In this document: positions 3,001 through 54,167 of the stretch, in pieces
How positions within the stretch are numbered: the stretch's first letter is position 1
How the letters are laid out: every line of letters starts with the position of its first letter
Assembly (NCBI GenBank): GCA_937930175.1
Contig: CALGLP010000023.1
Location: 27,205 to 91,204, forward strand
Length of the DNA stretch: 64,000 nucleotides
From: an uncultured bacterium
GTDB lineage: Bacteria; Omnitrophota; Gorgyraeia; Zapsychrales; Aceulaceae
Direction: 5' to 3'
Translations under genes and position numbers: made by a program
The notes under the pieces: model-generated
Database searches by the model: none
Seen by the model: only the letters and a program-made list of their open reading frames with translations
What the model was told of the DNA's origin: nothing

Positions 3001-6000
3001 AGCTATGTTTTTACTGTTGAACTCGTGGCTAAACTCGCTCTTTATCTACGACCCGTTGATGACTTCATCAATTCTTCCCGCTATTTTAACCCTTGGGCTG
3101 ATCGGCCCGACAGCGGTAAGCTTGTCGGGTTTATTCCAAGCCAGCACTGTCAATAACGCGGGATTACTGGATGCGGGTGTTTGGCAATGGCTTGCGGGCT
3201 TCTGGCAGGAGCGCGGGGCTTTATCTCTATCCATGTCAGGATCTTTTTCATCGGGAAATTCCTTGGATCAGACTGTTTCGTCATCTTTGATCGACCGCAT
3301 CTCAGGGCCGAACGCAGTCATTCGGGATTTCGAGATCAACGATGACTGCATGACTCTGACGGCGCAACACAAAGGGGTTACTGTTAAGGTCAGGATCGCG
3401 CATAAGTTATGCACGGTTATTTCGCTGGGTGCACGCAACCATAGTAAGCTCAACTCTATTCCGGCAGAAGCTAATCTTTTGAGGATTAAGGATATGGTGT
3501 TCGACAAAGAAGGTTTCGAATCCCAACATCCCTCCTTTTATGTAAACAAGGCCCGGGAAACCCTACAGGACGATCGATGGTGGCATATCGACGGGATTCG
3601 CGAGATTCCCATTGCCTCGATCTTTCGCATGCACAATACCTCCATTTTTAAATATTTCAGTATTTTGAGCCGGATCAACGATGAGGAATCGACTTGGAAT
3701 AAATTCATCCAAGAATTTCCGATCGATATCTTGGATATAGGATATGGGCAATATTTTATCCTTAAAGGAATGCATCGTTTTGACCTGGCTTACCTCTTGG
3801 GTCTTCAGGACGGGGAAATCCCCTGCAAAGTCTACCGGGTTAAAGAAAGTCGTATGAGCGAGAATGTCATGATCGGAAGCCTTTGGCAGTATATCGAAAT
3901 GCTTCAAGATGAGCTGGGCCCGAAGGATTTTAGAGAAAGATTCTTTAAGCATTCGATTGGAAAATTGGTAAGTGCGGTTGATTGCCTGAAGCCCGTTGCA
4001 TCTTACGAATATGAAAAGGCAAGCAATACAGTGACCATGACTTTTCCTTTCGTGGAGCTTTCGAATAAAAAAACGTCCTTAAAGAATCAGAACTCTAAAA
4101 TGCAGTATCTTTTTTGTCTTATTGCGGTTTTGACCGACATTGATCCTGAAGGGTTGCTTCCGTATGTTCTTGAAGAAGGGGCTAGGTCAGGGATTTTCCC
4201 CGCGTTAATAAGCTCTTCGCTCAAAACAGCCGCCCGCGCCAGCGCGCCGGGGAGTTATAAGACTCCGACGTTTATCCGCTCCTTGATCGGCTTACGGCAG
4301 AAATATTTCCCAGACAAACCCGGGCAGGCTGCGAAGCAGGGTCTTCATGAAGGCGTGAATGCGATCTGCGATTTCATTTTTGTGTTTTTTCAGGAGATCA
4401 AATTCAAGGGTTCTGTTGATATCTTCAAACCGCTGTTCTTTCAATACGACTTAAGTGACTTGTTTCAAACCCTTGCGGCTACGCCGGCAGATATCCTGAC
4501 GCCGCGCAACAAAATCGTTCAGAAGATCATTCGAGCCTTTTTAGCGATCGAGACAAAAGATTTCGAAAAGTCCTGGGCAGCGCTCTTGGAGACCGCGCGG
4601 GATTGCGTTAATCAAAAAAACAAAGATTTGGGCACATTTTGTTTCTCGACGATGCTGGATCTTTTTTATTCCTTGGTCCAGACTAAGGATATAAATGACT
4701 TTAGCATCAAGATATCGTGGGTTGTGGAAGGGCTGAAGAACACCAAGGATGTTGTGGCGCTTGCCTTGGGCGTTAACCTTATTGATGTTTTGCGCGCCAC
4801 CCTGGCGAACGAAATGGCCCAGGGGAAGAAAAGACCCTTGGCGGACCATCAGATCTTTGCGATCATACTCGAGAAAGACATCGCCCTGCGCGCAGACGAG
4901 ACGATTAAAAAGACGCTGGAGCAGGATCCAGAGTTTTACAATCAGGTCGCTTATAGCGATGAAAAGCTCGCGGCTTTGTATGATCAACTCGGGCAAGTGT
5001 ACCTGTTCATCGATCGGTATGCGCCGGAGATGGTCCGAAAAGCAGAAAAGGTTACCAACCAAGCGCTTTGGCTTGTGCCGGATCATGAGCCCTATTTGAT
5101 CCATTTGATCGATATTCATCTTCGTCAGGCAGGATTTTCTATCTTGGAAGGGGATTTTGTAAGCGCGTACGCCCGCTGCAGCGAAGCTGTTCGCCTGGAT
5201 GGTTTTGTTATCAAGAATAACGGCCAAAGCCAAGTGCCATTGATCCATTTTTATTCCGTGATCCTGGAAGTTCTCGATCCGGCGGGCGAAGGGGAGCGGG
5301 CGGCCAACACTTTTTGGCAGGAGGTTTTACCGGTGTTCCGGGATGAAGACCTGGTAACGGTGTTTAATCGCGTCGTTCCCCAAGCGCAGGAGGACACATC
5401 GCGTCAGAGGGCGGTGGCATTTTTTGCGGATCATTTTAAACTTTTGGGTCATGATTTAGACGATTATGCCAAGGCAGCTAAGTTTTTAGGTCAAATTGCG
5501 GATAGTCAGACCTGTGCTGCTTTGCAGGAGCACGCCAAAGATTTGTTTGAGCAAATCATCAGTAAAGGGGATTATACGGTGGCGGTTGATCAGGCGGATA
5601 TTCTCGCCAGGTTAGGGGCGCCCCGCAAGCAAGTGGAGGCCTTGAATGCTAAAGCAAAAACTTTATCGCGCCTTTGGACGGATATTCTGAAGGCTGAGAG
5701 CAGCGGTCAGCATGAAGGCGCATTGAAGAAAGCCGAACAGTTGCTTAACCAAAACTCCGGAGATGTTCGCGCTCAGAAAAAATACCAATGGCTGAAAGCT
5801 GAGATTGCAGCAGCCCAGAATCGGCAGAAGATGATCACAGATATTGAAAGCTTTCTGCGTAACGCGAACAATCAGGCGCAAAAACCGGATGAAGACAGCA
5901 AGCAAAAGGCGCGCAAGAATCTATCGAGGGTCGGGGAAATGATCGCCGGGCTTGATCCTGAAAAGGCAAAGACATATGTTGGGCGCATAGCCGCCATCGA

Positions 6001-9000
6001 AGCCCTTTTGATAGCGCAAGAAAGCGAAAGCGACGACCACGCTGAGATCAAAAAGTCTAAAAATGAAGAGCCTGCAAAAAACAAGGCGCCGCCAGCCCAA
6101 ACGACAGAGCCTGCTCCTACCGCAAAAGACCTTCCTCCGTCCAAATCCACTGTTGAAACAAAAAGTATCCGTATATATTTGGCCAGCGATATCTGGACCA
6201 CTTTGCAACAAGGACAACGCTTAGAATTATACAATCGTTTTCTTGGTTCGATCAAGTCATTAGCTAATCGCATCCTTGGCCAGCAACATCATTATAAGAT
6301 TAAAGATATTACCCGTGGATATCCTGTGAATCGTATCCATGTCGGCAAAATCCATCATTTTGCGTACACTGTTTCTATCTCGCAAGAGGATGGGGCGCAA
6401 ATATGGCTATTTTTTGATTACGAGAAAAGCCAAGGGAACAAAGGATATAAAAGGCTAGCTGATAGGCAGGCGCTTGATTATCTTTTTACAAATTTTGATA
6501 AGATTTTAAGAGACGCGGTTCTTGTTTATGAAACATCCTCCAGCGCTTTGGGTTTTGGCGACGCGCGGGTTGCATCGAGGTGCGCTTCGTCTACACCTCA
6601 GAAAAAGGTCTATCCTTTGCTATTAAGCACCGAAGAGCAAGCCTTTTCTACAAAGACTTTTGGAGAGAGCTATTTATCCGAAGCTATTGCGATTGACACA
6701 ACGGCTTTATCAGCCTCTCGCGAACAAGGCGCTGATAGACTGAACAAGATTGCTAACGCAATCTTGACATATCTTACGCAGCGCGGGCCACCAGAATTTG
6801 CCACCGATGTTAAGGCCGCATTGTTGTCCACAAAGATATTTTTTACCAATGATCTCCTCCTGCTTCAAGCAAAAGACTCCTTACCTTATATCGCTATTAC
6901 CGAAATAATCACGAAGCAAATATTTTTCCATACACAGTATCTTCAGTTTCCATTGTATAAGCAAATAGAGATTTTCTATTATGCCCTTGTCGGTTGTATG
7001 ATGAAGACAGCCTTGACTCGAGAAGAGGCAGAGGCAGACACGATTATTTTTATTTTGGAATATTTGTTTAAGACACGTCCTGAGCTGTGGATTGATCTTA
7101 ATCTCCTTGCGCAAAAGCTACAGGAAGGGTTGAAGGTTAACATAATCAAGCATGCTGGCAAGAAATTGATCTTTTATTCGCCAACAAAAAGGTGGATTGT
7201 TAAGATTAACTTAGAGCCAGATTTTGCTTTTGAGAAAGAAAAAGCATTTTTTGAAAAACACAATCCGCTTGAAGGCGCGCACATGGCTTATGCGAACAAT
7301 GAAGCCAAGTTTCTCGTTTTCAGTAATGTGTCTTATGACGGAAGGCTTAAGGATCTTTTTTCCTATTTGCACAGCGGGCAGATCAGCCTTCAAGAGGCAA
7401 AAGACGCTATCTGTGGTTATGCCTTGGTTCTTGCGAAGATACACGATAGCCGGATGGACATTTTGGATGAGGGTATTTATCTTCCGCAAGATTTTGATTC
7501 TCAGCTTGAAAGGGCATTAAATCGGTGTAAGTATTTGGCCGACCAAGGCTATCTCGATCTTCCTTCACGAGAGCAAATTATTGCAGCACATCACGATGTT
7601 CGCGACGATCAACTCGTCATGCATCATGGCGACCCAGGACTTACGAATTTTTTTGTTGACCCCTGGACGAGGGAAATAGGTGCGGTCATTGATGGAGAAG
7701 CCAGCTCACGTGGCGCGCGTAGCAAGGAATTGGCGAAAGTGATTGTCACGCTTATTGACGCTCAGAAAAATAGCCCCTTTCTTATTCAGAATTTTTATTC
7801 TTTGTTTATAGCTTTTCTTGATTCCTACTTTGATGCAAGTAAGGTTAATCCTTCGATTATTATGGCAGCGATACCGTATTATTTGGCGACAGAGCTTCTC
7901 TGGTATGCAGAAGAAACCCAGCGTATCCTTGGGAATAGGACGTGGGTCGCTTGGCGTCTTGAACTATGCCGATGGGCTTTGTCGATTGAGAAATTCACGC
8001 CAACGCGATTGATCGCTTTTTTGAGCGAAGGTCTTTCCTATGTGCGTGTAAACTCAGTTACGACTAAGATTGTCTCTCCTTTATTTTCTGAAGTAATGGC
8101 TTCGGGTTTTGAGATGAACCTGGAGCCTCATGAAACTGCTAAAATTTTTGTGTATGTCGATGTTGAAAACTCCTCGGAAAAAGTGATTTCCCTGATGCGA
8201 ATACCTGCTGAGCTTTGGAGTGATATTGATCAACAGGATGTTTGGAGAGGTGTTGGTCCGCTTGAATTGATTCATTATGGAGATGGAAAAGCTGTGTTTA
8301 TGGCTAAGGCTTTGGCAGAGATTTCCAATAGGCCGGAGTCTTTTTATCAGTTAACTTCGCGCATTGGTCAGGCGTGGGCGGATTTGCCTCGAGGGAACCT
8401 TAAGATAAAAGTTAGTTTAAGCAAGCTAGAGAGGAAGTCATGGGAAGAGTCACTTCAGGTTTTTTGGGGAGCGGTTATGCTGGATTGGGATGGAACAATC
8501 AAGGGGTATGGAAACAAGGCTCCTTCAATTTCTATCTTTGACCACATTGCTAGGCTTAATGCGGCAAAGGTTCCCGTTGCCATCAATACGGGGCGTAGGA
8601 AGGCAGAAGATACTAGAGAAATCTATGACTTTTTTAAAGAGATAGGGGAGCGGCTCGGTGATCATTTTCATCCAGAGCTATGTTATTTTTATTTTAGCAC
8701 AGCTTCCCTCGCCTATGTTTATAACAACTCAGAGGCATTGTATCAGGCACACATCCAGGATGATTATTTGGCGCATGCTATGGACGTTCTAAGGCAGAAA
8801 CATTTTGATCCCTTTGTTAAGGATGTGGATATTGGCCAAGAGGCGATTAGTTTTACCTTTAAAGGTGCCTGCGATCGAGGGTTGTTTGCGGATCGGCTCA
8901 ACAGAAAGCTTTCCCAAAAGCCGGGTCTGGGCGCAACCTATACGGATGATTATTTTCAGGTCGGCATTTGTGATAAGCATATAGGACTACAGGACTTCTC

Positions 9001-12000
9001 GCAGCGCATCGGGGTGCCGATCGATTATATTTTGCGCATTGGAGATCAAGGACAGCCCTTAGGCGTTGATAATCCCATGATCAATACGAGAGGCGGGTTG
9101 AGCGTTAATCATTTTGATGTTTCTTATGTCTGGCCGCTTAGCACGATCAAAATTCTTGGCCTGAAGAGTGTTGATGGCGCCGAATGGCTTTTAAAGAATT
9201 TTAAGTTTAGATCACCGTTTGTTTCTTCAGCGCTCACGCAGAATAGGGCAGAAGCTTGGCCGTTCAGAGCCCCAGCTTCCAGCAATCTTTTGAACACGAT
9301 TGAGAAACGGCAGCGTATTGCGCAACACAACCGTGAGCGTTTTGGGTCGCTTGTACTTCAGGTCCTTGAAAAAATGTTGACGAGGGTTAATGAGGGTATC
9401 GTGCAAGAAGTGGAGAGGCGAAATCCAGAGCCTGGGGTTTTAAACGCTCTTTATGTTTTAAATGCCCGCGTGGCTTATTACTTAAGCTTTTTTGAAAGCA
9501 GCAAGGCAAGAGCGCAACCCTTGGCAAAATATATCCTTGGCGAACCGTATCCTCAGGCGCAGTTGATCGCCCTCCATGCCTTGCTGAATATTAACCCTCA
9601 GGATATGCAGGCACGCGCAGCACTTCATCAATTATACCAAGAGACCAAGGAGCAAGAGGAACAGCTTGAGAAAGATATTGAAAAGATAGATTCAGATTTT
9701 AGCCAGGGCCAGGAAAGCGGAGGCTTAACCTTCTTTGAGCTCAATCCAGACCAGGAGCAATTACTAAGAGATTTTTCTTTCGCCGAGGCCCAATTAAAGC
9801 AGTCTTTAGAAATCTTTGCCAAGCTTCACGATCTGCGTATTGTCTCAGAGATCCTTGAGAAAGTTCATTCGATAAATCCTCAGGAGCGCATACAAGGGGC
9901 GGAATTGATTATTGCTTTTGATGATCCTGCCTTTATTCCCATTTTGAAGAGCGAGGGGATATTGCCTATGGATGACCAAGCGAGCAAGCCGATCGAAGAG
10001 ACTCTTTCAATCTTTAAAACGAATCTTTATTTTTTAGAGGCTATAGGATTCTTAGGAGATCAGAGGTTTGTTGAGCAACAACTGATCGCATGGAAGCCAT
10101 TTTTTATCAAAGTCCGTAGAGCTTGGCTTTTGCATCCACACCCTGGGCTTGATGAGATCGTGGCCAAGAGCCTTTTTAGCCTCGGCCTTAGACAGAGAAG
10201 CGCTGTTGTTAAGAATATTCAGGACATATGGAGCAATCCTCGTTTGGCGCAAAAGGATGCTTTTCTAAGAACGATGATCGATGTTATCGCTAATCTTGGA
10301 TTGGTTGAGTATATGCAGGATATTGACCGGAAGTATCAGGTGATTTGTAAAAAAGAGGCGGTACTTCAGCGTGAGCGCCTGGAGCAAATTCTTTTGAGCC
10401 TGGGGCACCAAAGAGTTTCCGATCATTTTAATTGGCGGTTAAGTCAATACATTGAGAACCAAGGTGAAAGTACTGCGGCGGAGGCCAGGTTGATTCTTGA
10501 CAAGGTCGGCATGGTTATGCAGGCCTGTGGGTTTGCGGTGTCATCGTCGGGTGTGAAGGCAATAGAGCCTCAGGTGGACAGGATGAGCAGCACAGGCATA
10601 AAAAGCCGCAGGTCTAAAGAAGCAAAGAAGGTGGATTACGACCTTATTATGAAATTTCTTAAAGAGAACGATTTGCGAGCCTTAGGGGTATTTTTTGAAA
10701 AACATCGAGAGTCTTTTATAGGGTATCTAACGAACAGCTATTTTGGCTCTATGACTAAGGAAGATGCCGAGGATATTCTTCAGAATGTTTACATTAGAAT
10801 CATTCGTACGCGCGGCAATCTTAAGTCGCAATTTCACGGAAAAGATGATCCCTTGCCTTGGATTTATCCTATTTTGCGTAATGCCTCCTACACATGGCTC
10901 AAGCAGAAGTCTAAGATGAAAACAATTTCTTTAGATGAAGGGGATAGTAGTTTCGAGATTCCTGACGAGCCGGTTATACCTATGGATGAGCGAGCGCGAT
11001 TTGTCGTTCTTGCGCAAGAGATAAAAACATTGTTGAGAGCATTTGTTAAAGAGAAGTTACCTCCTGTGTACAGGCTTGATTTCACTTGGCATTATGATGA
11101 GGGATGGACGGATTTGCAGATTGCTAGTTTGCGAGGTGTTAGCAGAAACACTGTGAAATCCAATCTGCGCAAGGCGCGGCGTTTTTTATGGAAGCTTTTA
11201 GAAGAAGAGCTGCGAACACGTCCGGATCTGCGAGAGTATCTTGAGTCTCTTCCTCAGGGGCGGGGTAGAAAGAGGCATGTCTTTGGCAATATCAGACCCA
11301 AAGCTGTTTCTTGTCCGATTGTTGATCGAGCGTCTTCTATCATTTTGCCCGGCGCGGCGGAGGCAGGCCTTTTTGGGAACACAAAGCGTATTGCACAATT
11401 TGAGGATGAGGCTAATCGAAAGCTGAGAACTCCGATCGGCCTTGAGATAGAACTTAATCTTCCCGAAAGTTTCTGCGACGAAAAGAATCTAAAAAAGATT
11501 ATTCAGAGTCCTCGAGATCTTCGCAGGATGCAATATATTGATTTCCACCCTGACCATGCCTACAAGCTTCCCGAATTTAGTTTTGGTCATTCATGGAGCT
11601 TTAAAACGCAAATGTATTTGTGGGAGAAGATGAAGGATATTTTAAAACTTAGGGATAGCGATGTTAATTCGGTACAAATTAATCTTGGGATTCCTTTTGA
11701 TGTTTGGAAGAAATGTTCTCTGGTGCGGTTTCGCGAGGATGCACGGCTTTTGATGTTGGCGGATGTGGTGGCTTTTGTTAGCGATAAAAGGATCAAGGCT
11801 AAGAAGACTGATAAAGTTGTGAGCTTAGATTGGGCTGAACCTATTAATGGCAGAAAGTATGTCCGTATTGAATATGGTTTTGGCGATATTCAAAACTTAA
11901 GCAAAAGCGGACCTCTTGAGCAGAACGTTCATGGGGCACTGGTGGAATATCATAGTCATTATCAGCCTAAAAAAGATGATATTTCCTTATCTGATCCTAG

Positions 12001-15000
12001 GCTTCCTTTAGCTGCGGTCTGGCAAGAAAAGGGCATTGCAGAGCTTAAGCCGTTTTTGAAGCAATGCGTTATTCCTGAATCACGGATCAAGCTTCCCGAG
12101 GCTCGTACATTTAAAAAACTTATTCCTTGGCGTGATAAGAATCCTAAGCTTGTTGATGAACTGCGGTCGTTGTTGTTATCGATGCTTTCTGATTGCCAGG
12201 AAGTTTGCGCTAGTGCGTCCAAGAAAGCGAAATCTGGGGCAGAAAAACAAGGCGCGCCGGTTGGTATCCTCGCAAGCTCAGTGCTTAGAAATAAGGCTTG
12301 GCTTGAGGGCATCGAGGCCATCCGCTCCTGGATTAGTCGTCGTATCCGTTCGCCGGTAATATCTTTCAAGAAAGTGTTTCCTTCCAAGCCCGTAAGACCT
12401 GTTCCTTCGCAAGAAGACATTTGCCATACCTGGCAGGAGGCTGTTGAAAGATTTTATACTATGAAAAAGGAAGGGAAAAGTACCCTGGCATTGCATCTTC
12501 CCAAGGAAATTATCCCTCCGACATTAAACAAATATTTGAAACGTAAATATAGAAAATATTTCTTTTCGCGTAAAGACAACGTTCCGGCGCTTGTGCCGGC
12601 GGATGTCTTTATGCTTTATCGCACAGCGACTGCCAAGAATTATACCGTGATCTTTCGGTGGATGATTCCGGCGATCACGGAGATTGAAGAGATCGCAAAG
12701 GTTCACAACCAGTCCTGGGCCAAAACTCCCCAGGAAAGGTTCACCACGGAACAGGCCACGGCCATGATCCATAATCATCCGACAGGACATGTGGTGGCGG
12801 AAGTCGTTGACCATACGCAAAATAATCGGCGTTTTATTTATGGGCTGATCTGGAGTAAAAGAGTTTTGCTGACCCTTAAGATCGTTTGGCAGATTCGCCG
12901 GGGCAAACTACGCCATACGATCTTTAAGAATCTGATGACCTTTACAGACAACCTCACGTTAAGCGGAAACCGTTTTGACGGTAATGGGGTATTTAATTAC
13001 GCGGTCGGTATTCCTAATCCCGGGGTCATACCTCCGGAAGAATTCGCGCCTTATCTAGTCGACGGCAAGCGCATCGAAGGAGTTTTTCAGGGCCTTATCT
13101 TAAGCCAGCGTTTTCAGGCCCAGCGCGATGGTCTGGAATTTTTATGCACGTATAGCCCGGAGTCAGCTTATATCCTTCATCGCAACAATAGCGCGATCAA
13201 ATTTAACAAAGGCGTTATCTACAACGGACGGTATGCGGGCATGAACGCGATCTTGATGCGGTATCCGCTTTACAGCATGAGCGAGCTGCGTGAACTTCTC
13301 TGGAGCGGTCAGATGTCTGTCCACAGATTTTGCCGCCATATTCGACAAGAAATGGCTGACCGTACCGGGCTTTATTATCCTGACCTTGTTCGTCGGCACG
13401 AGCCTCCCTACGATATAGTCCCGGAAGCTGTGGCAAAACATGCAGAGGAATATCATTTATGCTCTCTGTTTTTACGTCAGCACTCCCGGCCTTTTCCTTG
13501 GAGTAAAAATTTGACCCGGCGTTTACGTAACGGAGCTTATCAGGTCGTTGATCGCGTGATTGAAGATCCGGCAAGAAAGAGAAAAGCGAAAAAGGTCATC
13601 CGCTTATTTCTGAAACAACGGGCCCTAAAGCCATGGACGCTGTATGGGATCAAGCGCGCCTTAAGAAAGATCAAGAGGATTTATGTTGATCTGCGGCGCA
13701 TAAGAAAATTTTCCGCTTTGAAAACGCTGAAAGCCCTACGGCACATCAGCCGTATTTTTATCCGCCTTTCCGTGCAAGACTATGAAACGCGCTCCCTTAC
13801 TATGCATGAAGCTGTTAGGGCTTTGGGGATCATCATGATGATCGTGGCCGATAACACCGATGATCCGGAAAAAGCCCTTAAAGACCGGGTGAACGAACAG
13901 GCGCTCGAAGACCTTCCGGACGTCGTGGCGCTTTTGGCCAAGCGTGGCAATACGCTTGAGGATGCCTTGTTGGTCTCTGCGCTGGGCAATGCCCTGGATT
14001 TTGCCAATAACGAGATCGCGCACCATCGGACAGGAAATGGGGATTATTCTATTAAGATTGCGATCTTGGAGGCCCTAGCTAAAGAAACAATCCAAGACGG
14101 TTTTTGGAAGAAAAATGATTGTGAAGTTCTTAAGAAAAAGCTTGAAACCAAGAGCCAACATGGTTTTTTTGTTTTTGATAACGCGGGCGAGGCTGTTTAT
14201 GACCTGCCGCTTATCCGTTGGCTTATTGCCCATGGCCATCAAGTGACCCTGGTTGCCAGAAGCCGGCCGATATTTAACGACATCACAATGCGTGAACTCG
14301 CCGAGCTTTTTAAGCAGCCCGCTGTGATTGCTTTGTTTGAAGATGAAAACAAGAAAAGCTTGATCAGCTGGCATAAGGCAATGAAAAAATCTTTTGGTTT
14401 AGGGTCTGGCGAAGCCAAGGATTTTAATTTGAATATCATTGGCACCGGCACGGCTGTCTTGGGCATTGATTATCAGGATCTTTCTAAAGATTTTATTGAA
14501 GCCTTTCAGGCTGCGGATTTTGTTCTCTTCAAAGGCCAGGGAAACTATCACACGAGTCACGTGGTCAGCTTGCAAAAAGACGCTTTTTATCTTTTGTTTG
14601 TGAAATTAGCTGTGGAGGTTGCAGGCAAATATCCCAAGGGAAGCTATGTCTTTGCCTTTGAGGCGGCTGGCAGCAATGATTCACGAGATTTTTTCAAGAA
14701 AAATTCGGGAAGAAAAGGCGCAAGGAAGTCCCAAAGCTCGCCGGTATCGTCCTCAGGGGCGGTTGTGCAGGAAAATAAAAGGGTGTTTAAGTTCAGAAAC
14801 GCTGATTTTTTTGTCTCGTGTTTATCATGCGAAGAAAGTATTGGCCAGGCGCAGTATATTGTTTGGGAGATTGCCTTGACTGATCTCACCGTTTTAGCGG
14901 AGAGAGTAAATCCTACGAGCGTTACCGTTATCCGTGTTGTTAAGAGCCTTGTGGATGCGGTTAAGAAGGCAAAGAAAGCTTTGCCGAAAGATTCTTCCAA

Positions 15001-18000
15001 TAAAGGCATCAGCTTGCTTTCCTTATATAACGGGTGTCAGATTGCCTCACAGGATATGAATGAGGAGGTTTTACAGATCTTTTTTCTTTCGTGCATTACG
15101 CAGGTTTTGAACATCAAGAAAAACGATCCTTTATTTGTTCACCGAGAATATTTTCCTTTGCATAATAAGGCTGAGTATGTTTTTTATGATCCTACGCAGG
15201 TTGACGTCATTAAGACAAGTGACGGATGCAAACCTGTTTTTCCTTACATGAAAGAAGCTTATTTTAATGATATCGTTATGCTGTTGACGGGCCGAAGCCT
15301 TTTGCCGACAAACACAAGGCACACTAAAGACGCGGGAATGTCCTCACCCATGGTGTCGTCAAACCTTGACTGCCTTCCTCAAAATGATGCCACGTGGGGT
15401 AAGGTCCTTAAAGGCCTTGGGGTTTCCTCGCTTGACATCCCACATTCTTTAAGAAACGCGAGGATTGCAAGGTGTCTGGCGAAAACGGAGAGCTTGGATC
15501 CAGAGACAACCTTGGCGTCTGAAGCCGCGATGTGGTTTCATGATGTTTCAAAAAATACTCCGCTTGATCAATATTTCATAGGCAATGAAAAGCTTTCGCA
15601 GACATTTCGTCTGCTCGTGCATCATTTGGAAGGCGCGCAGATTGCTGGAAAACTTCTAAAGCAGTGGGGATGCGAGAAGGATTTTATTAAGCAGGTGCAA
15701 GGCATGATCCTCACGCACATGGGCCCCATCAAGGGGAGCATTCGTTTTGAAGGTGAGACGGTGGGATTTATGGAATATGTGCGGCTTACCCATTTAGACG
15801 AAATCAAAAAAGCTCTTCTTTCTTCTGGTAAAGAGATGAACGCTGTGCGCAGAAAACAGTTGGACGCTTATGTTCGCAGCCTTGAAAAAGGATTTCCTCA
15901 GCCACAGACCATAGAGCAGAAGATCGCTCGAGATGTTGACCTTCTGGACTTGGCCGGCCTTGGGATGCTCAAGACAGTTTTTAATCGTCAACATGAGGCA
16001 CAATTCTTTGAGAATGGCCAACCTGAAGCACTGCTAACATCGTTTCGTTCAGCCAAGCAAAGCGCCCAAGATGTTGGGTACAATTTGTTCACGAAAACGG
16101 CAAAGCAAATATGGTTTCAGCAGATAGCGGTATTAGAGGATTTTGAGGAATTTTTCTTGTGCTTTAAGGAGAAGCGTGTAACGTTTAAGTTTTTTAAGCC
16201 ACTCTTTAGAGGATTTCTTTGTGGGCATAGTCCTGAGGAACCACTGCGCGGATATTTGGCATGCTTGCGCGCATCGTCGCAGATTGATGCTGGCAAGGCA
16301 AGCAGCGCGAGGATTGAGCTTTTGTGGCCCAAGGTTTCTGTTACAAAAAATGGGTATTTTCGCGTGACAAGAAATGCCAAGGAGATTATAGGAATTAAGG
16401 CTAGTGATGTTTCGGCCGTTAGTTATCCACCTATTGGGGGAGTCAATTTTCTTCTGACAAGGCCGCAGATTGATTTGTTGGGTGAGTTTTTAAACAGTAC
16501 CCAAGCCGTGACCCAGGATCGCTCTAATCTCTCTTATTATAGAGGGACAAAGGTAGGAGCTTCTTTCTTCCGTAGGGTTTGGTGTTTTGTGGGATGCACG
16601 ATTGTTGGAGATCAGGTCAGGCCTGATAAGTATATAAAAAAATATCTTCCATGCAATCAAGAAGTTTTTTATGGTTATGGTCTTGGTTTAGTGTTTTTGG
16701 CCCAGAGCTGGGATATCTTTTTTGCGAATCTCAAGAATCTTTCTGAGCTTCAGCGAACTTACGTGAGGGCGGTTATTTTTGATGTGCTAAGACAAGAAAA
16801 CCATGGCTTAACGCCAAAGCAAGTCCAAGACCTTAGGGATGTTTACGCCATGCTTGCGCTTGAGCCTGCGATCCTCAAAGAAGGTTTTTCTTTTGTAAAG
16901 ATTGAAGAGATCTTAGGGCTTCTCGAGGAGAAGGGATTCTTTAAGAAAGCACTGGGGCTGTCGTCATCGAGTATAGGCGTTGGGTATCGAGAGCAGGCTT
17001 CGTCGGCAAGTGCTAATATTTCAACGGATATCGCGTTAGACTTTGAAGATCCTCGCAACGTTTTGTTGACCTCAAGGCCTCAAGATCTCCCGGGCTGTAT
17101 TCGCCAAAGAGTGCTGCCTCAGGGTGAAACGATTTTGGTGCTAGGCCCCAATGCTATGCTTTACGCGGGTCAGACGATCAGGGCCCTTAGCCAGAACAAT
17201 CGCGTTGTTATTGTTCCTGTCTTTGAGAGTTCAGAGGTAGAAAAAGCTTTTGCCCAGCATAATCCAAACATTGTTATCGCGTCCAACAATAGAGTCGCTA
17301 AACAGCTTATTCAAGAATATTGCCATACGACGCAACAAAGACTTTCTATTTTCTTTTATTCTGACCTTGAGGCGATTGTCAGTGCGGGTGATTTAGAAAT
17401 TTCTCAGCGGCCAAATTTGAGCATTGCCGATGATGATATTTCTCTTGTGACACAAGCGATCCAGTGCCATGCGACACAACTTCCACGCAAAGATTTTCCT
17501 CATCGAACAGCTTACGACAAAGCTGTTGTGCCTTTAGCAGAGGTCGCGGCCATGATTGCAAATTATTTAGGGCTTACTTTGGCATCTGGAAAATATGCCA
17601 ACAATTTTGTTGTAACCAAAATAACAAGAAAAGGGGTATTGCTGGCACCAGCACTTTTTAAGAAGTACCAACTTGTTTTCAATGGGGCAAAGCCCTCAAA
17701 AGGTTTTGTCGGCATTGCATTGTATGAAGATCAGCCAGTTTTGTTTAGCTCTCCGCATCCTGATGATCCGGAAATTGGCGCAGGCTTTTTGATTCTCCAA
17801 CTATTGCAAGGGGGAATTGATATTCACAACATTGTTCATTCTTCTGGAAAAAATGGTGTTCAAAGCAGTGACGCTCTCTTATCTGATTTTTCTAAAAGGC
17901 GAAATCTTTCAACAGATGAAGCAATGGCTCATATAAGAGGGTGGGAATCTCAGCATGCCGCAGTGTTTTTGCGATCAGTTTTGCTCGCCATGCAGAGATT

Positions 18001-21000
18001 AAGGGGTGATGGCGATATCACTGTACTAGAAGCCATGTTGGATTATTATTTTGATGATCCGCAAGATCGAGATTTGTATATCTATGAGGAATTTTCAGAT
18101 CTTATTGCAAGGCATCTTCGTTTTCAAGAGAAAACCGGTAAGACATCATTGCCCTTTTTAGCGGTGTTAACGCATCCGGTTGACATGCAACCCACCCATG
18201 TTGAGGTTTACAAGAGAAGCATTGAGGCTCTAAAAAAACTGGCTCAGAAATATGGTATTGAAATCCAAGTTATTTTTTATTCTTCTCCCTGGCAAGGCAA
18301 CCACAACACGTATTTCCAGTATTCTTCCAAGGATGTCTTGGGCCAAAAGGCTGTTTCTCGGGAAGGAAAGATCGCAGGACTTCTTTCTCAGGGCATGGCT
18401 TATTTTACTCCAGAATTAATAAAAGAGACCTTTGGGTTGCATGTGCCTACTTTAGGTGAGGTGGGCGGAGACCGTGTTGAGCGCTTTAGAAGAAGTGTGT
18501 TTGAACCAAAGATATCTTCAACGCTTGCCATAAGCTCATCAACCACATTCTGCTTAGGAATTAACGAGCTCCTTTCAAGGGTTAAGGACATGCCTGCTTT
18601 TGAACTTTTGTCTGCCTTGGATCTTCAAAAGGCCAAGCTTCTTAAGACAATAAAGACGAACCTTTTTGACGTGCAGACTATCAAGATGCCAAAGCGTTGG
18701 AATTTTATGAAGCCTCCCACTGGATGTCAGATTTTTCACAATGAACTAGCTCCAACGCGTTATTTTGATCTTGTCTATAACAACAAAGGACACCTGATCG
18801 CAGTATTTCCTGTTGTTTCTCAAGATGTATTAAGGCGTTTTGGGCGGGATCGCTTATTTTATTTTGATTTTACAGCATATTATTTTGAGCTGCCTAGCAT
18901 GAGCGATCCAGAGGCTAGAAAAAAGTGGAAAGAGTTTGCGGTTGAGAGTTTGCGGGATAAGGCTGTTATCGAAGCCTACAAGAAGCAGAGAAAAGTTTCA
19001 GACCTTGTCAAAGAATTTCCAACCCAAAAACAGCTTCCTTATGTTTATGCTGAATTTATTCCAGAGTTAGGGATGCCGTTGTTGATTCAATTTGATCCAT
19101 TGGAATTGCTTGAGGAAGATTCTGCTTTATGGCAGCAAGAAGTAAAATTTCAAAGGATCTTTTCTGTAGCTTTGAATAATCCAAGAGTTATTTTCCCGAT
19201 TTTTCCAACAGTTTATTCTCCTGCTACCGAGCAAAACCAGATGAGTGATTTTACCTATTTGAGGTATGTTTATGGTCTTGGTAGCAATCTAAAGCTTGGC
19301 GCAGAGGAGATGAGTTTAGTTGTTGGCCCAGGGTCAGGGATTGATGCTTGGCTTGTTTGGCTGGCAACAGGACAAACCGTATACGTCGTCGGTATTAATC
19401 CTTTGGAAATTGCCAATACAGGGGCTCTGGCCAGGCTAGCAGGCTTTAGCGTTGAAGCTAAAATTCATGATAATATTCTTACAAAAAGCGGAAAGTCGAT
19501 TTTTGGCAGCAAGAAATTTGTTTTGGTGTGTGCCAACGCGCCTTTTTCAGAAGACTCACCTCTGCCCCCTCATACCTTGGCTGATTTAGTTGCTAGTTTA
19601 GTGATTAGGTTCTTACTTACCTTTGAGCTTATGAGGCCAGCAAGACTTATGTCGTATTGGGATGGCGATGAAGGTAAATTTATAACAGGCCTTGCCAAGG
19701 GGATCTATAAGGTTTTGGATCGTCAAAAGGGACGCAGCGTTATATGGGAAAGGGTGTCTACATCAAGGATCAACCATGACAAGATATTTCGGTCTGTGGG
19801 CTTGGAGCTTGTTTGGGTGGCATCTGACGATGATGACGAAATCGACATTGTCTATGTTCTTAAGGTGAAGAATCAGGCCTCCTCGTCCATTCCTTTTAAC
19901 AAGCGCCGCGGAAAAGGAAGGTTCCACGAATCTGAGCCGATGCTGCAGGATTATTTTGTGCGGTTGGTTAAAATCAATCTGGAGCTTATTAGCCTGAGTG
20001 CCAAGCGTACAGCGTTGCAGTGGCGGCAAAAAGCGATCCTTGCTGATATAAATGATTTGGCGGAGTCTTCAGATGTAGGGCAGCGCGTTGACTTAACAGA
20101 GAAAGCTGCCAAAACCGCGGCCGATCTCCAGGCGATTGTTGAGCAGCTTGATCGCCTTTGGGTAGATCTTGAGGTGTTTGTCCAAGAGATCGATTCGGCG
20201 CAGGTCGATGCTGCGCCGCAGGATCTTTTTGCCCAGGCTAATATGAAGTTGCAGGAAGCTGTCATCTTTATTCAAGCGCACAATGAGCCGGCAGCCAATG
20301 CCATCTTGGTTTCGGTATTTGAGTCTTTTCGCAAGGAATTGTTGAATGTGATCCAAAAGAGAGCTGACAAGCCTTATGATCAAGAACGCATTACGGTTGA
20401 GCCGGGATCAGGAAAGATATCGATTGTCCGAGGCCGTAACATCAAATACGCACTTAATCAGCGCAAGGGCAAGGGTACGATCTTTAGGATTTATGATGAT
20501 GTTGCGTATGCATCGCTTGGCCAAGCTTTTGGGGCCGTTGACCATGAACTGCAAGGGGAGATCGCTGAATTACTGAGCTTAAGAGATATTTATCGGGAAA
20601 TTCGCGACGTACGAAATCTTTTAGAAACTGCCATCATGCCGCTTTCGGTTGCTGATAAGCGCAAAGGCGCTCAGCCGCAGGTCCCTGATGCTGAGGCCCA
20701 AAGAATTCAGTTGATGCTTGTCGGGATCCAGCAAAAGCTGTCCAGGGTCACCCTGGAAGAGAAGAAGATCATTCTTTATGCGCTGAAGCTTGGCTTGGAT
20801 CTTTTTTCTCTTGATCAATGGCGGGCCATCTATTCTGTCTTAGGGGTTGCTTTGATGTTCATCCAGGCAAGGGGCGAAGCTGTTAAAGGTATTGCGCAGA
20901 GAGTTGTGAGCGGCCGGTTGCAAGACCTTGAAAAGATCGCCGCAGATCGTCAGGGGGAATTATCTTTACTGATCAAGAAGATCAAAGCAGAAATCGCGGA

Positions 21001-24000
21001 GGACAACTTTGACGGTGCTTTGGGCAAATTTGAAGAGATGATCACCTCAGAGAAGATCAAACCATATCTGGCAGAAATTGAATTTAGCCAAATGCCTGCG
21101 CTACTTAAGCTTGCTCGCCGTCTTATTCGCGACCCTGCCAACAAAGAAAAGGTTATCGAAGTGCTATTGCTTTGCGATGCCATCATCGAGGATACGAAGG
21201 ACTTGGCCGAATTTATGAAAGCATTTCGCAGGGTGTATGTTTTTGAGAACATTCGCCAAAAGGGTTTACGCTTAACCATAGCGCAGGCCTTTGAGGGTAC
21301 ATATGCGCAGTTTATTAAGAAAAAAGGCTTAGCCCGGGGGTCTCCGCAAGCGGAGATCTCCTGGACTTTGTTTTATCGTGCTGTGTTTATCCCGCCTCTC
21401 ATCGATAACCCCCAAGACAAAACGACGCGCATCCCGTATCCTGTCTTTTTAGCCGCAGGTGATTTACTCGACATTAAGCGCGTTAGTCATTTTAATCTGC
21501 TTTCCCGCATTTTCCGGTCTTTATTACAAGAGCTCATCAAGGAGGACAAAATCTGCTACGGGGATCTCTCTCAAGAGGAAAGAGACGATCTTGTGAACAG
21601 TTTGGCCGCGCTTCATGATCTTTCTGAGGCTGATCAAGCTCTGCTCGCGGCGGCCCAGCGCGCAAGTTCGGTGAGCAGAACGGAAATCAGAGGTGGCAGT
21701 GATCTGAATGACCCTGATTCTACTAAGCCTTTGGATGATCCTGATCAGAATGCAAAGGTTGAGAATCCTGATGATTTGCTCAAAGAGCCGTCAAAATCAC
21801 CCAGAGAAGTAAAAATTGAACAAGAATTTTCTTGTTCGAATAATTGTAATCCCTGCACGCGGTGCATGTCATCGACTTTGCAGACGCCCATGTTTCTGTC
21901 CGCAGAGAAGATGCTTAGGCGTCAGCGCATGATGTGGCTCATTCGCGTTGCGGCGGATCAGGATGAGGAATTATTTAAAGAAATGGAGCAATTATTTAGC
22001 CAGAATCCGGAAAAAGGTAAGGTTTTTGCAGCCATTCATCATTGTCGTAAAGTTGGCCTTTCCAAGCTTTACATGCACGCAGGGGGGATAGGATCCCCAA
22101 AACAGTTATACAAGGTGTTTGATGCGATTATCGATGATATCTTAGCAAACAATCCAAAGGCCAAAGAACTCTATGAAGAAGCCGATGTGCTTTTTCAGGG
22201 TGAGCAGAAATATGTTTCTCAGCTTACAAAAGACGATTTGTTTAATATTATTTGGGTTTTGCGTCAGATGAGCATAGAGGAAAAGGAGAAACTTGAGCAC
22301 TTGATCATGCTCTTTCCGGCGGCCATGGAGCATGCCCGTTATAGTTACCTGGTTAGAAGTATTTCTGAAGCAGGCGATACGCTGCGAAAGATTGCCGCAG
22401 GCGAATATATATATGACATTGTTGATGAAAGGCAGAAGCAGTACAGCAGTGAGTCTGCCTGTATTCATGGTAAAAAAGTTTTTGCTTATATAAGGCATTT
22501 TGCAGAAATCCCTTATGTGGCTCAAAAGGTTATTGAGTATCGAGATCTGAGAGGGAAAGCTAAAGCGCTTAAGGACGAGAATCCCAAGATCCTGTTTGCT
22601 AGGGTCAGGAGCATTATTCAGGAGGCTTATGTATCAGAAGATCAGGATTTGTGGAATCGCCTGGTCAAAGATTTGCCCTATCTTCCTGGCATGCAAGTCT
22701 TGGCTGAGCTTAGAAGTCGTTTTAGAAAGAAAATAAGCCAGCGATTGGCTGCGTTAACCTACCAAGCACAAGGCCAGGACTGTAGATTTGCGACAGTAAA
22801 ATCAAGGACAGATTTTGAGCCGGAAGACACAACAAAAGTTATTAACAATCTTGTTTCGCATCCAAGCGTATTTTTTCAATTATTAAATGAAGAAAATTAT
22901 CCTTTGATGGGCAAGCGCCGGATGATCCTGAAGAGAGTCGGCCACTTGATTGAGAAGGCGCGTAAGCTTGTGAAAGACTACGAATACAGCCAAGCAGAAA
23001 CTTTGTATAAGGAAGCGCGGGAGGTGTTAAAGGGAATAGGTCCTGATGTGAGGGCATCGGAGTCGTTAAACAAGAGCATTGAGAAAGGTTTGGTAGAGGT
23101 CAGTACGCTTCTCGAGAACGAAAAACACCATGAAGAGATTGTTGCAGAAATACAAGGTGCGGAAAAATGGATAAAAGAGGGTCAGTATGAACAAGCGAAG
23201 GCTTCGTACGATAAGGCTCAAGCGATCTCGAAAGACTTAAGTCCTGATGCAGAGATGTTTTCGCTTTTAAGCAAAAGGATCACGAAAGGCTTAGCGGAGG
23301 TCGAGAGGCTTCAGGGCAGAGAAAAAACAATCACAGAGCTTTACGTGATTATAGAGAAAGCAAGAAAGCTCACGCGAGATGGCCACTATGAAGAAGCGAA
23401 AGGGTTTTATCAAGAAGCTCAAGAGATATTAAGCGCCGCAGGATCGGGTGGCGGGATGGCATTTCGATCTTTAAACCTAATCATCAAGAATGGCTTGGAA
23501 AAAATAAGCAGGCTTCAAGGCATAAGAGCCGCGACCAAAAGACTCAGCGGGATAGTGAGAACAGTAGAAGAGCTTAAGAGAGAAGGTAAATACAAAGAAG
23601 CGGAAGATTCTTACCTGGAGGCTCAAGAGATATTAAACATGGGAGGCTTGGGTAAGAGGGTTGTTCGGTCTTTTAGAAACAGGATCAAGAAAGACTTAGC
23701 CAAGGTAATCAGGCTTCAGGACAGGGAAAAATTCTACATGACAGTAGGGAAAGCAAGAAAGCTCACGCGAGATGGCCACTATGAAGAAGCGAAAGGGTTT
23801 TATCAAGAAGCTCAAGAGATATTGAGTCGCGCAGATTTTAGCAAGAGGGTGTTTAGTTCTTTTAAGAAGCGGATCGCAAAAGGCTTGGCAGAAGTATTCA
23901 GGATGCAGCGGGCATTTGAAATTCAAGAGGCAAAGAAAACTATTAAAAAGATTTCTAAGATGATGGTTGTCATGAAAGACTTTTCAAGAATGAATATTAC

Positions 24001-54151: not shown

Positions 54152-54167
54152 TAGCGCAGGAGAGGCC

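Follow-up and report, generated by a model that had tools for sequence, protein, structure and literature searches.

Two groups of very long proteins have been described in the Omnitrophota, the 'Archaeovorins' (West-Roberts et al. 2023, bioRxiv 10.1101/2023.11.21.568195) and a 'multi-enzyme metabolic cluster' class (Nielsen & Lui 2026, bioRxiv 10.64898/2026.06.07.730766). Such giant ORFs are on record, in one species backed by proteomics (West-Roberts et al. 2023), and SecA_DEAD is found in most Archaeovorins and a C39 peptidase in some. Most domains of the giant proteins are predicted to lie outside the cell, and 39% of the long proteins combine a signal peptide with transmembrane helices (West-Roberts et al. 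2023; Nielsen & Lui 2026). Members of the phylum reportedly live as epibionts or predators.

The window analysed here, a 64,000-nucleotide stretch of a contig from an uncultured bacterium, contains an ORF of 17,588 aa that fits this described class of 'Archaeovorin-type' or 'multi-enzyme metabolic cluster' giant proteins. The flanking AccA, which among named matches shares its 70–86% identity only with Omnitrophota/Omnitrophica proteins, places the window in the Omnitrophota; named relatives of the kinase-HAD block described below come only from Omnitrophota MAGs. The reading frame is open back to nt 2, and translation may really begin before the window; an ENA gene call uses a TTG start at nt 4976, giving 15,963 aa. 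A crude Kyte-Doolittle scan (19-residue window, threshold 1.6) finds 36 hydrophobic peaks in the 17,588-aa ORF. Besides the domains listed below, the ORF contains ECH, methyltransferase, PPDK_N, PEP-utilizers, Cation_efflux, Response_reg, and a weak HATPase_c match, with no family dominant.

A preliminary description of this DNA placed a run of phosphate-chemistry and deacetylase domains at nt 7200–18310, in the N-terminal third of the giant protein. The limits are slightly wider, from nt 7043 for the kinase block to nt 18490 for the PIG-L domain, and, with the frame open back to nt 2, the placement holds only for the portion of the protein visible in the window. Phosphate chemistry is not special to this third, as PPDK_N/PEP-utilizers, a response-regulator receiver and the weak HATPase_c lie farther along the ORF. 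The quoted motifs, from kinase through PIG-L, all fall in the same frame of one ORF (HGDPGLTN at aa 2509, IDGE at 2530, DWDGT at 2795, GDQ/DNPM at 2981/2990, DNAGE at 4693, KGQGNY at 4811, and HPDDPEIGAG at 5886), and no rival ORF of at least 200 aa overlaps the region in any frame. HMM searches (Pfam, NCBIfam) were run on 600-aa windows of the protein. The features are as follows.

nt 101–52867, + strand: giant ORF, 17,588 aa (ORF analysis of the window)
nt 4808–19576, + strand: stretch of ~4,900 aa (aa 1570–6492) without a TM-like hydrophobic segment (same crude Kyte-Doolittle scan)
nt 7052–8035, + strand: APH-family (eukaryotic-like kinase fold) small-molecule kinase domain, aa 2318–2645 (HMM, motifs, homologues)
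nt 8036–8455, + strand: beta-rich middle domain of the kinase-HAD block, aa 2646–2785 (kept in all six block sequences)
nt 8456–9235, + strand: HAD-IIB (Cof-type) phosphatase domain, aa 2786–3045 (HMM, motifs, homologues)
nt 10679–11188, + strand: ECF-type sigma-70 domain, regions 2 and 4, aa 3527–3696 (HMM)
nt 11423–12220, + strand: carboxylate-amine ligase fold domain (GS/GCL/YbdK/PafA-Dop superfamily), aa 3775–4040 (predicted structure)
nt 13760–14614, + strand: DUF89/ARMT1 metal-dependent phosphatase domain, aa 4554–4838 (HMM; active-site mapping)
nt 15404–16225, + strand: HD phosphohydrolase module, aa 5102–5375 (HMM and relatives)
nt 17039–17731, + strand: degenerate LmbE-like half of a double LmbE unit, aa 5647–5877 (alignment)
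nt 17732–18490, + strand: PIG-L/LmbE deacetylase domain, aa 5878–6130 (HMM and relatives)

The clustered domains of the preliminary description are real, each supported by HMM or homologues: ECF sigma and DUF89 are recovered directly, HD and PIG-L narrowly reach their Pfam thresholds, and the calls of an APH-like kinase and of HAD-IIB are backed by homologues scoring above the Pfam cut-offs. The catalytic motifs of the kinase, HAD, DUF89, HD, and PIG-L domains vary little or not at all among homologues; in the giant protein they are intact in the first four, but the first His of the PIG-L HxxH is a Gln. The ~11 kb string together seven or more enzyme or regulator modules that evolve separately, and ~42% of the span is linker without an assignable domain. 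As all of them lie inside the helix-free stretch, they are on the same side of the membrane.

The APH-type kinase, the beta domain and the HAD-IIB phosphatase make up one conserved 740-aa unit, which five other sequences match at 33–38% identity (E down to 1e-136). The kinase contains K2368, E2378/E2380, the Brenner motif H2509-G-D2511-x4-N2516, and I-D2531-G-E2533, while the HAD domain contains motifs I (D2795-W-D2797-G-T2799), II (T2830), III (K2959), and IV (G-D2982-QGQPLGV-D2990), the last with a 4-residue insertion common to all five block sequences reaching it. The giant's own scores are below Pfam cut-offs, with the APH domain matching only NCBIfam (E 2e-3, spanning the catalytic loop) and the HAD domain falling just under PF08282 (19.7 bits against 20.9). 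Among the four homologues complete over both domains, APH scores 34–48 bits in all four and Hydrolase_3 27–32 bits in three (P0002, L006, L007), all above cut-off. The best solved-structure matches for the HAD domain are Cof-type sugar phosphatases; for the kinase, matches are limited to generic members of the APH family and the kinase domain of ACAD11. Elsewhere the block occurs as a stand-alone 811-aa ORF (L007), with a PHP domain (L006, 1,235 aa), and within ~3,000-aa proteins with different neighbours. An ORF with a weak UDPGP match lies upstream of L006.

The ECF sigma domain scores 63 bits with TIGR02937 (cut-off 42.9). The ligase-fold domain at aa 3775–4040 was overlooked in the preliminary description. 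Enzymes of the carboxylate-amine ligase superfamily (YbdK/GCS2, gamma-glutamylcysteine ligase, glutamine synthetase, PafA/Dop) share a GIETE/GxExE motif, which we take the N-terminal G-x-E-x-E strand of this domain (G3780-L-E3782-I-E3784-L-N3786) to resemble. The domain has no match by sequence in Pfam, NCBIfam, or PDB; its structural model is of moderate confidence (pLDDT 70), and a paralogous second copy is found at aa 12340–12600. The DUF89/ARMT1 domain (PF01937, 118 bits, E 5e-34) contains the active-site residues D4693-N4694, D4727, and K4811-GQG-N4815, mapped with PMC9062747.

The HD domain (PF01966, 23.0 bits against 22) contains H5115, H5147-D5148, H5174/H5175, H5206, and D5278/D5280, and belongs to a ~270-aa unit found at varying positions in proteins of 409 to 4,224 aa. 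Because the partners of this unit elsewhere are of regulatory type (GNAT, methyltransferase, sigma, HATPase_c) and not sugar enzymes, the cassettes may serve unrelated functions. The PIG-L domain (PF02585, 28.8 bits against 28.2, covering only the N-terminal half of the model) contains H5886-P-D5888-D5889, R5946, E5949, and H6033, and its three inferred zinc ligands are intact. However, Q6030 replaces a near-invariant catalytic-site residue, the first His of HxxH in at least 90% of relatives, and the domain may therefore be impaired. Both calls are confirmed by relatives at E 1e-20 to 1e-57, which give full-length PIG-L (up to 53 bits) and HD matches. The preceding half lacks HPDD in all relatives and keeps an 'H-A-T-Q' motif; its alignment points to an LmbE fold. 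The double LmbE unit (~480 aa) occurs by itself in a 492-aa protein or in fusions with Glucosamine_iso, PGM_PMM, or GT5, with a NagB-type domain the commonest partner (8 of 30 relatives) and PGM_PMM in 2 of 30. The best solved-structure matches for the PIG-L domain are diacetylchitobiose deacetylases. The domains to which the cassettes are fused elsewhere (NagB-like, PGM/PMM, GT5, PHP) suggest that they act on sugar phosphates or amino sugars.

Taken together, the region is probably part of a membrane-associated giant multi-enzyme Omnitrophota protein, with independent cassettes mostly active on soluble sugar phosphates or amino sugars. From the preliminary description this reading retains the real domains, their mostly intact catalytic residues and the sugar-phosphate/amino-sugar hints. 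The helix-free stretch would carry independently folding cassettes separated by unannotated linkers, in the order kinase-beta-HAD, ECF sigma, ligase-fold, DUF89, HD, and tandem degenerate-plus-active LmbE. The occurrence of cassettes alone or with different partners indicates that cassettes of separate histories were added and shuffled on a conserved framework as the giant gene grew. The closest collinear relative, P0149 (3,354 aa), has five blocks collinear with the giant but, of the modules in the region, just the ligase-fold and HD ones. Most cassettes would be active enzymes kept together and near the membrane by sharing one chain, acting in parallel or loosely coupled and not as an ordered line. 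Likely reactions are the phosphorylation and dephosphorylation of small soluble sugar phosphates and amino sugars, and the de-N-acetylation of GlcNAc-type compounds.

The preliminary description had instead suggested an assembly line for a phosphorylated, possibly glycan- or lipid-linked substrate, perhaps related to envelope genes downstream. On this reading all six domains would belong to a dedicated and ordered pathway that modifies a single such substrate in successive steps and is functionally tied to those genes. A kinase, three phosphohydrolase families and a GlcNAc-type deacetylase do lie within 11 kb on one helix-free stretch, the PIG-L family includes lipid-linked GlcNAc deacetylases, and a LysM-YkuD gene occurs 6 kb downstream of the ORF. 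We nevertheless consider such a pathway quite unlikely, as no relative found keeps the set or the order of the domains, their partners vary freely, a sigma factor domain and the ligase-fold domain interrupt the run, and Pfam/HMM scans of the giant ORF detect no carrier or tethering domain. The frequent pairing of the LmbE unit with a NagB-type glucosamine-6-phosphate isomerase, a soluble-sugar-phosphate enzyme, favours soluble amino-sugar phosphates over a linked substrate. The genes downstream (U32 peptidase, PD40 propeller, ComM-like ATPase, LysM-YkuD, AccA, RlmN) are ordinary housekeeping genes, one on the opposite strand, with no detected relationship to the region. Decay offers another explanation, under which the domains are mostly non-catalytic pseudo-enzymes, carried along as passengers or serving a scaffold protein as structural spacers: the copies in the giant have diverged strongly (four of six at or under Pfam thresholds), the PIG-L His is lost, the N-terminal LmbE-like half lacks HPDD, and HAD motif IV has an insertion. 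This is also improbable, since the nucleophiles and metal ligands of the kinase, HAD, DUF89, and HD domains are intact, as are the PIG-L zinc ligands, the HAD insertion is shared by the block sequences, and active-site residues are invariant across relatives only 30–45% identical, a sign that purifying selection acts on these sites.

Clues to localisation conflict, as the ATP-using folds and sigma domain point to the cytoplasm, while a crude heuristic finds signal-peptide-like N-termini in the stand-alone kinase-HAD ORFs (L006, L007) and in 23 of 53 complete-looking relatives. Together with the published topology predictions and the reported lifestyle of the phylum, these starts raise the alternative that the stretch is extracytoplasmic or delivered to a host or prey, attacking or diverting its sugar-phosphate and amino-sugar pools. 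We regard an exported effector array as rather unlikely: there is no obvious periplasmic or extracellular role for a sigma factor, or for a kinase and a ligase fold that depend on ATP, the signal-peptide calls are crude, the N-terminus of the giant ORF lies outside the window, and the hydrophobic segments flanking the stretch are of ambiguous topology. It is exceedingly unlikely that the long frame is a mis-assembly or a fusion of neighbouring genes. One public gene call does begin 1,625 codons downstream of nt 101, and cassettes are found as separate genes in other genomes. However, 17,588 codons run without a stop at 45% G+C, three independent assemblies are identical or 99.97% identical over the last 11–14 kb of the window, an independent 300-aa fragment matches aa 5289–5577 at 100% identity, and similar giant ORFs, in one species with proteomic backing, are documented (West-Roberts et al. 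2023).

Compared with known enzymes, the DUF89 domain has counterparts of the D-N nucleophile/metal pair, second metal Asp and phosphate-binding Lys of the 'damage-control' phosphatases (AF1104 2ffj, PH1575 2g8l, S. pombe Duf8901), but is embedded in a giant protein, has a ~50-aa insertion past the second Asp, and scores far under the equivalog cut-offs. The ligase-fold domain is ~265 aa, with ~190 residues aligned, against 350–500 aa in solved superfamily enzymes. In NagB-LmbE fusions ('glucosamine-6-phosphate deaminase-like protein', NCBIfam NF002557 / PRK02122), the LmbE part is matched by aa 5876–5926 of the giant, but at 15 bits against a family cut-off of 384, with Q6030 at the first HxxH His and no detectable NagB-like domain in the giant. 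Like the PKS/NRPS megasynthases, the archetypal enzymatic assembly line, the giant has many catalytic domains on one very long polypeptide, but it lacks carrier (ACP/PCP), condensation, and thioesterase domains as well as a repeated module grammar, and domain order varies among its relatives.

In contrast to the published Omnitrophota giants, searches of the window detected no SecA_DEAD, C39/S8 peptidase, glycosyltransferase, glycoside hydrolase, or NUDIX domain, and the 11 kb that follow the ORF contain neither secretion nor pilus genes. The passages on those giants considered here make no mention of DUF89, PIG-L, ECF sigma, or the ligase-fold domain. Signal peptides occur in the cassette relatives at about the frequency given there (Nielsen & Lui 2026). 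The giant ORF shares with both published classes its phylum, a length above 10,000 aa, many hydrophobic helices, and varied enzyme Pfams with none dominant, and PPDK_N, HATPase_c, HAD, HD, methyltransferases, and Response_reg are frequent in those giants and present here.

The giant ORF (nt 101-52867, plus strand, 17,588 codons; aa numbers count within it) is the sole giant frame in the window, whose G+C of 41–49% excludes chance as the source of so long an open frame. The frame is stop-free upstream to nt 2, within the first bases of the window, so the gene may begin upstream of it. The ENA gene call takes a TTG at nt 4976 (aa 1626) as start codon and gives a protein of 15,963 aa, and the frame stays open 5' of this codon. 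The other ORFs of at least 200 aa that overlap the giant are two short minus-strand ORFs, both outside nt 7200-18310; within that interval the ORF scan found none. Over its last 11–14 kb, the window is identical to contigs of ENA ERZ724082 and NCBI GCA_036722365.1 and 99.97% identical to a contig of ERZ724084, with strain variants accounting for 4 nt differences in 13 kb. The flanking AccA is 70–86% identical to proteins from Candidatus Omnitrophota/Omnitrophica wherever the source is named, including Ca. Aceula meridiana, which places the organism in the Omnitrophota. An ORF at nt 54027-55844 (within nt 52919-55844 of the window) shares 125 nt with the U32 peptidase gene; in public gene calls it begins at nt 54168, yielding a 558-aa protein that lacks a Pfam match.

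All motifs quoted in the preliminary description for nt 7200-18310 were found in frame and in place. The giant was scanned in 600-aa windows with Pfam and NCBIfam models, and the run contains the following matches:

Domain matches in nt 7200-18310 of the giant ORF (plus strand), with scores and model cut-offs
ECF sigma factor (TIGR02937): 63.1 bits, cut-off 42.9
DUF89/ARMT1 (PF01937): 118.4 bits (E 5e-34), cut-off 25
HD (PF01966): 23.0 bits, cut-off 22
PIG-L, N-terminal half of the model (PF02585): 28.8 bits, cut-off 28.2
HAD Hydrolase_3 (PF08282): 19.7 bits, cut-off 20.9
APH(3''), catalytic loop only (NCBIfam): E 2e-3, cut-off not reached

The annotation is thus robust for the ECF sigma and DUF89 domains and at threshold for HD and PIG-L, but falls below threshold for HAD and for the kinase-like segment, which also has no match to Pfam APH (PF01636) above the gathering threshold in the giant's own sequence. 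With regions 2 and 4 both present (Sigma70_r2, 24.7 bits; Sigma70_r4_2, 34.1 bits) and TIGR02937 above threshold, the sigma segment is by sequence an ECF sigma factor domain. No Pfam matches were found in the visible aa 1-2300 (nt 101-7000), even by 600-aa windows.

The kinase-like and HAD segments form a single conserved unit of 740 aa (aa 2315-3054), which aligns end to end, with 33–38% identity, to five other sequences: P0001 (from an Omnitrophota MAG) and P0002, both proteins of ~3,000 aa; L001, an Omnitrophota MAG fragment; and the metagenome ORFs L006 (1,235 aa) and L007, whose 811 aa are essentially the kinase-HAD block alone. Four of these homologues, 34–36% identical over the block, match Pfam APH at 34–48 bits against a cut-off of 23.2, and three score 27.7–32.4 bits with Hydrolase_3, above the Pfam threshold that the giant itself does not reach. 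The Brenner loop H-G-D-x4-N (H2509, D2511, N2516) and the I-D-x-E motif (D2531) are invariant in all six block sequences, and the catalytic loop of the giant aligns to that of APH(3')-VIIIa (4h05). Candidates for ATP positioning in the N-lobe are K2368 and E2378/E2380, of which the Glu residues are invariant and the Lys is Arg in L001. The HAD part, which aligns to 3r4c and YidA (1rkq), carries all four motifs in the giant (D2795/D2797/T2799, T2830, K2959, and D2982...D2990), with the block consensus D-x-D-G-(T/V), Thr/Ser, Lys, and G-D-QGQxxG-x-D. Motifs I and II are kept in all six sequences and motifs III and IV in all five that reach them; motif IV has a 4-residue insertion common to every relative reaching it.

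For the kinase part, profile searches of solved structures returned APH(3')-VIIIa and the kinase domain of ACAD11; for the HAD part, they returned the Cof-type sugar phosphatases 3r4c, YidA, and BT4131. Maltokinase-, NahK-, or AmgK-like matches were also sought for the kinase, and nothing more specific emerged than generic APH and the kinase domain of ACAD11. Between the two parts lies a beta-rich domain of ~140 aa, for which a profile search against PDB sequences gave no match. An AF2 prediction of the 740-aa block from a 3-sequence alignment reached a pLDDT of 51, and its Foldseek matches were meaningless (TM about 0.1). One lead is that kinase, HAD, and PIG-L together might mimic the AmgK/MupP/MurU cell-wall sugar salvage route.

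The domain list of the preliminary description was incomplete, as self-comparison of the giant detected a domain overlooked there: aa 3749-4014 resemble aa 12319-12579 (31% identity, E 4e-22). In its predicted model (pLDDT 70), the segment at aa 3775-4040 has a fold like the solved GS/GCL/YbdK/PafA-Dop members of the carboxylate-amine ligases; these solved enzymes are much longer than the giant's domain. Sequence searches of Pfam, NCBIfam, and the PDB, the last also by profile, gave no match for it. Of the residues that would bind ATP/Mg and substrate, only a G-x-E-x-E strand and conserved R3922/E3924 are discernible, and a ligase or amidase activity is putative. The domain recurs with 50–55% identity at the start of P0149, a relative of 3,354 aa, and in P0188, a JGI fragment of 432 aa in which, by eye, the domain precedes a pair of hydrophobic segments and a GGGPGIMEAANKGA motif that is LOG/'Lysine_decarbox'-like; by the same inspection, P0188 may be another combination of cassettes.

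The DUF89 domain of the giant (aa 4554-4838) can be aligned with two archaeal structures of the family, AF1104 and PH1575, and DNAGE, (F/I)NDxT, and KGQGN(Y/F) are conserved between them. D4693-N4694, D4727, and K4811 correspond to Asp248/Asn249, Asp286, and Lys401 of Schizosaccharomyces pombe Duf8901, in which the Asp-Asn pair provides the nucleophile and a metal ligand, the second Asp binds metal, and the Lys contacts phosphate (PMC9062747).

With all 3,703 aa of the region as query, a homologue search recovered only 3 proteins and missed the relatives of the HD and LmbE domains. When aa 5100-6130 were used as a HMMER query against 1.8 billion representative proteins, 60 relatives were found, and these fall into two separate units. 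Unit A (HD, aa ~5102-5375) is 38–47% identical to segments of proteins of 409–4,224 aa; its metal-ligand pattern H...HD...HH...H...D (H5115, H5147-D5148, H5174/5175, H5206, D5278/5280) is conserved in 14 relatives within this identity range, and 10 of 18 unit A relatives have Pfam HD matches.

Unit B (aa ~5647-6130) is a double unit of ~480 aa, encoded alone by P0152 (492 aa). Its N-terminal half is LmbE-like and lacks HPDD in every relative, and its C-terminal half is, by its motifs, a probable true PIG-L domain. Of the 129 positions of the PIG-L model, the giant covers 2-68 and whole-unit relatives cover 1-128, the latter with up to 53 bits. All 30 relatives keep HPDD (H5886-P-D5888-D5889), one Arg, one Glu, and the last His of HxxH (H6033) without variation; at the first position of HxxH, at least 90% of them have His, where the giant has Gln (Q6030). 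By analogy with MshB, HPDD would supply a Zn ligand (His), the general base (Asp), and a second Zn ligand (Asp), and HxxH presumably supplies the third Zn ligand with its second His and a catalytic residue with its first. The metal site of the PIG-L domain thus looks intact, with one catalytic-site residue replaced. The nucleophiles and metal ligands of the kinase, HAD, DUF89, and HD domains are kept. These alignments show separately conserved enzyme modules in one chain, with putative active-site residues intact save for the first HxxH position of PIG-L.

It had been suggested that these domains form an assembly line for a phosphorylated, possibly glycan- or lipid-linked substrate. An ordered line with substrate tethering did not hold up, since the domain scan detected no carrier domain in the giant ORF and relatives have no conserved order, having just one cassette or another in common with the giant, in other contexts. 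P0001 has the order aminotransferase, HD, HD_assoc, APH-[HAD], and methyltransferase; P0002 contains only APH-HAD plus a weak methyltransferase match, and L006 adds a PHP domain to APH-HAD. Among the 30 LmbE-unit relatives, Glucosamine_iso (NagB-type) occurs in 8 and PGM_PMM in 2, while GT5, methyltransferase, HEAT, APH, or sigma domains turn up singly in others. The partners of HD-unit relatives (GNAT, methyltransferase, sigma-70, HATPase_c, and Metallophos) match the 'regulatory' co-occurrence module of Nielsen & Lui 2026. P0149 and the giant are collinear over five blocks: the ligase-fold and HD domains, a 'punctuation' element of hydrophobic character, the stretch that is aa 13790-14255 in the giant, and the C-terminal 680 aa. 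The kinase-HAD, DUF89, and PIG-L modules are missing from P0149.

Scans of genome and metagenome contigs found no diverged orthologue of the whole region; the genome-contig scan gave one short Omnitrophota fragment, and the two metagenome-contig scans gave nothing and then two loci. Recognised modules make up 58% of aa 2315-6130, with unannotated linkers at aa 3055-3525, 4041-4553, 4839-5101, and 5376-5646. The varying partners and the collinearity with P0149 show that the domains do not form a unit and that the enzymes are variable cassettes within a conserved framework. As P0149 shares the framework without most of the enzymes, it argues for growth by cassette insertion into a conserved scaffold. 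We found no evidence for a lipid-linked substrate, nor for the proposed tie to downstream genes, the 11 kb downstream being housekeeping without secretion or pilus genes.

In the 'punctuation' element, of ~55–90 aa, a hydrophobic helix with the pattern SSP[IV]LPx[IL]LxLGL..ALASL precedes the motif AGLxDAGVxxWLAGFWSEH. The element is a possible marker of module borders or membrane passes, and is present once in P0149 and in at least five copies in the giant (plus strand):

nt 3056-3232, aa ~986-1044
nt 33449-33637, aa ~11117-11179
nt 40142-40360, aa ~13348-13420
nt 42851-43129, aa ~14251-14343
nt 45167-45451, aa ~15023-15117

Elsewhere in the giant, a large internal duplication relates aa 7250-7776 to aa 8292-8822 (nt 21848-23428 and 24974-26566; 39–55% identity) and holds further helical repeats of ~67 aa (aa ~7600-7950) with TPR and SbsC-spectrin-like matches. 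Embedded at aa 12090-12268 (nt 36368-36904) is an entire Cation_efflux (CDF transporter) domain that has transmembrane helices of its own. The second ligase-fold copy (aa 12340-12600, nt 37118-37900) comes directly after it, and then Response_reg (aa 12855-12964, nt 38663-38992). An enoyl-CoA hydratase, a small methyltransferase, PPDK_N, and a PEP-utilizers mobile domain also lie further along the ORF (nt 28508-29131, 29807-30004, 30848-31756, and 33236-33451). The run of phosphate chemistry is therefore present as described but not confined to the flagged third: PPDK_N/PEP-utilizers, Response_reg, and a weak HATPase_c follow, so that enzyme and phosphotransfer content extends outside it.

A simple hydropathy scan counted 36 transmembrane-like peaks over the giant ORF, with aa 1570-6492 free of them, which places all modules of the run on one side of the membrane. 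The ATP-dependent folds and the sigma domain argue for the cytoplasm. By a crude rule, the stand-alone kinase-HAD ORFs (L006, nt 3299-7006; L007, nt 532-2967) and 23 of 53 complete-looking relatives (among them P0129-P0132, P0135, P0137, P0138, P0142, P0144, P0146, and P0150) have signal-peptide-like N-termini. Such starts are unexpected on ATP-dependent kinases or where the protein has NagB/ROK-like content. A positive-inside analysis of charges around the flanking hydrophobic segments was uninformative. Published surveys report the same ambiguity of localisation, and 39% of long Omnitrophota proteins with a predicted signal peptide and transmembrane helices (10.1101/2023.11.21.568195; 10.64898/2026.06.07.730766).

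The signal peptides of free-standing relatives would also suit a reading that we consider improbable, in which the helix-free stretch is an exported or injected 'toolbox' (sugar kinase-phosphatase, DUF89, HD, LmbE deacetylase, PafA/YbdK-like ligase) that, with the ECF sigma domain, rewires the sugar metabolism of a host or prey. An epibiotic Omnitrophota cell would display the chain to the cell it preys on or lives on, or thread the chain into that cell, and host ATP would be used; the targets would be host amino-sugar and sugar-phosphate metabolism and possibly host transcription. Under the reading we prefer, the modules would be active and co-localised near the membrane through the single polypeptide, and at least the kinase-HAD and LmbE cassettes would act on soluble sugar or amino-sugar phosphates. 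Sugar substrates are suggested because cassette relatives are partnered by NagB, PGM/PMM, GT5, and PHP, and because the best structural relatives are Cof-type sugar phosphatases and diacetylchitobiose deacetylases. With clear cassette boundaries and stand-alone genes of 811, 492, and 409 aa (L007, P0152, and P0138), the cassettes can be expressed and assayed without the ~2 MDa protein.

Giant Omnitrophota ORFs were already known, but their internal logic was not; the assembly-line idea is corrected here, and current views on giant proteins are refined and none overturned. West-Roberts et al. 2023 describe Omnitrophota giant genes with many transmembrane regions, the Archaeovorins, in which HAD, PPDK_N, HATPase_c, and methyltransferases are frequent (10.1101/2023.11.21.568195). 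Nielsen & Lui 2026 define a 'multi-enzyme metabolic cluster' class in which methyltransferase, HATPase_c, GNAT, HAD, and HD belong to one co-occurrence module and sugar enzymes to a second (10.64898/2026.06.07.730766). In these accounts, a divergent SecA_DEAD occurs in most, not all, such proteins and a C39 peptidase near the N-terminus in some. The visible 17,588 aa, whose N-terminus may lie outside the window, contain no SecA_DEAD, C39/S8 peptidase, glycosyltransferase, glycoside hydrolase, or NUDIX domain. The accessible parts of both papers make no mention of DUF89, PIG-L, ECF sigma, or the ligase fold, which add members to the known pattern; the previously unannotated ligase-fold domain and the 'punctuation' element may be parts of the framework that define the family. 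As an Omnitrophota protein of more than 10,000 aa, rich in transmembrane segments and in different enzyme domains, the giant is of the Archaeovorin type, and it fits the multi-enzyme metabolic cluster class of Nielsen & Lui.
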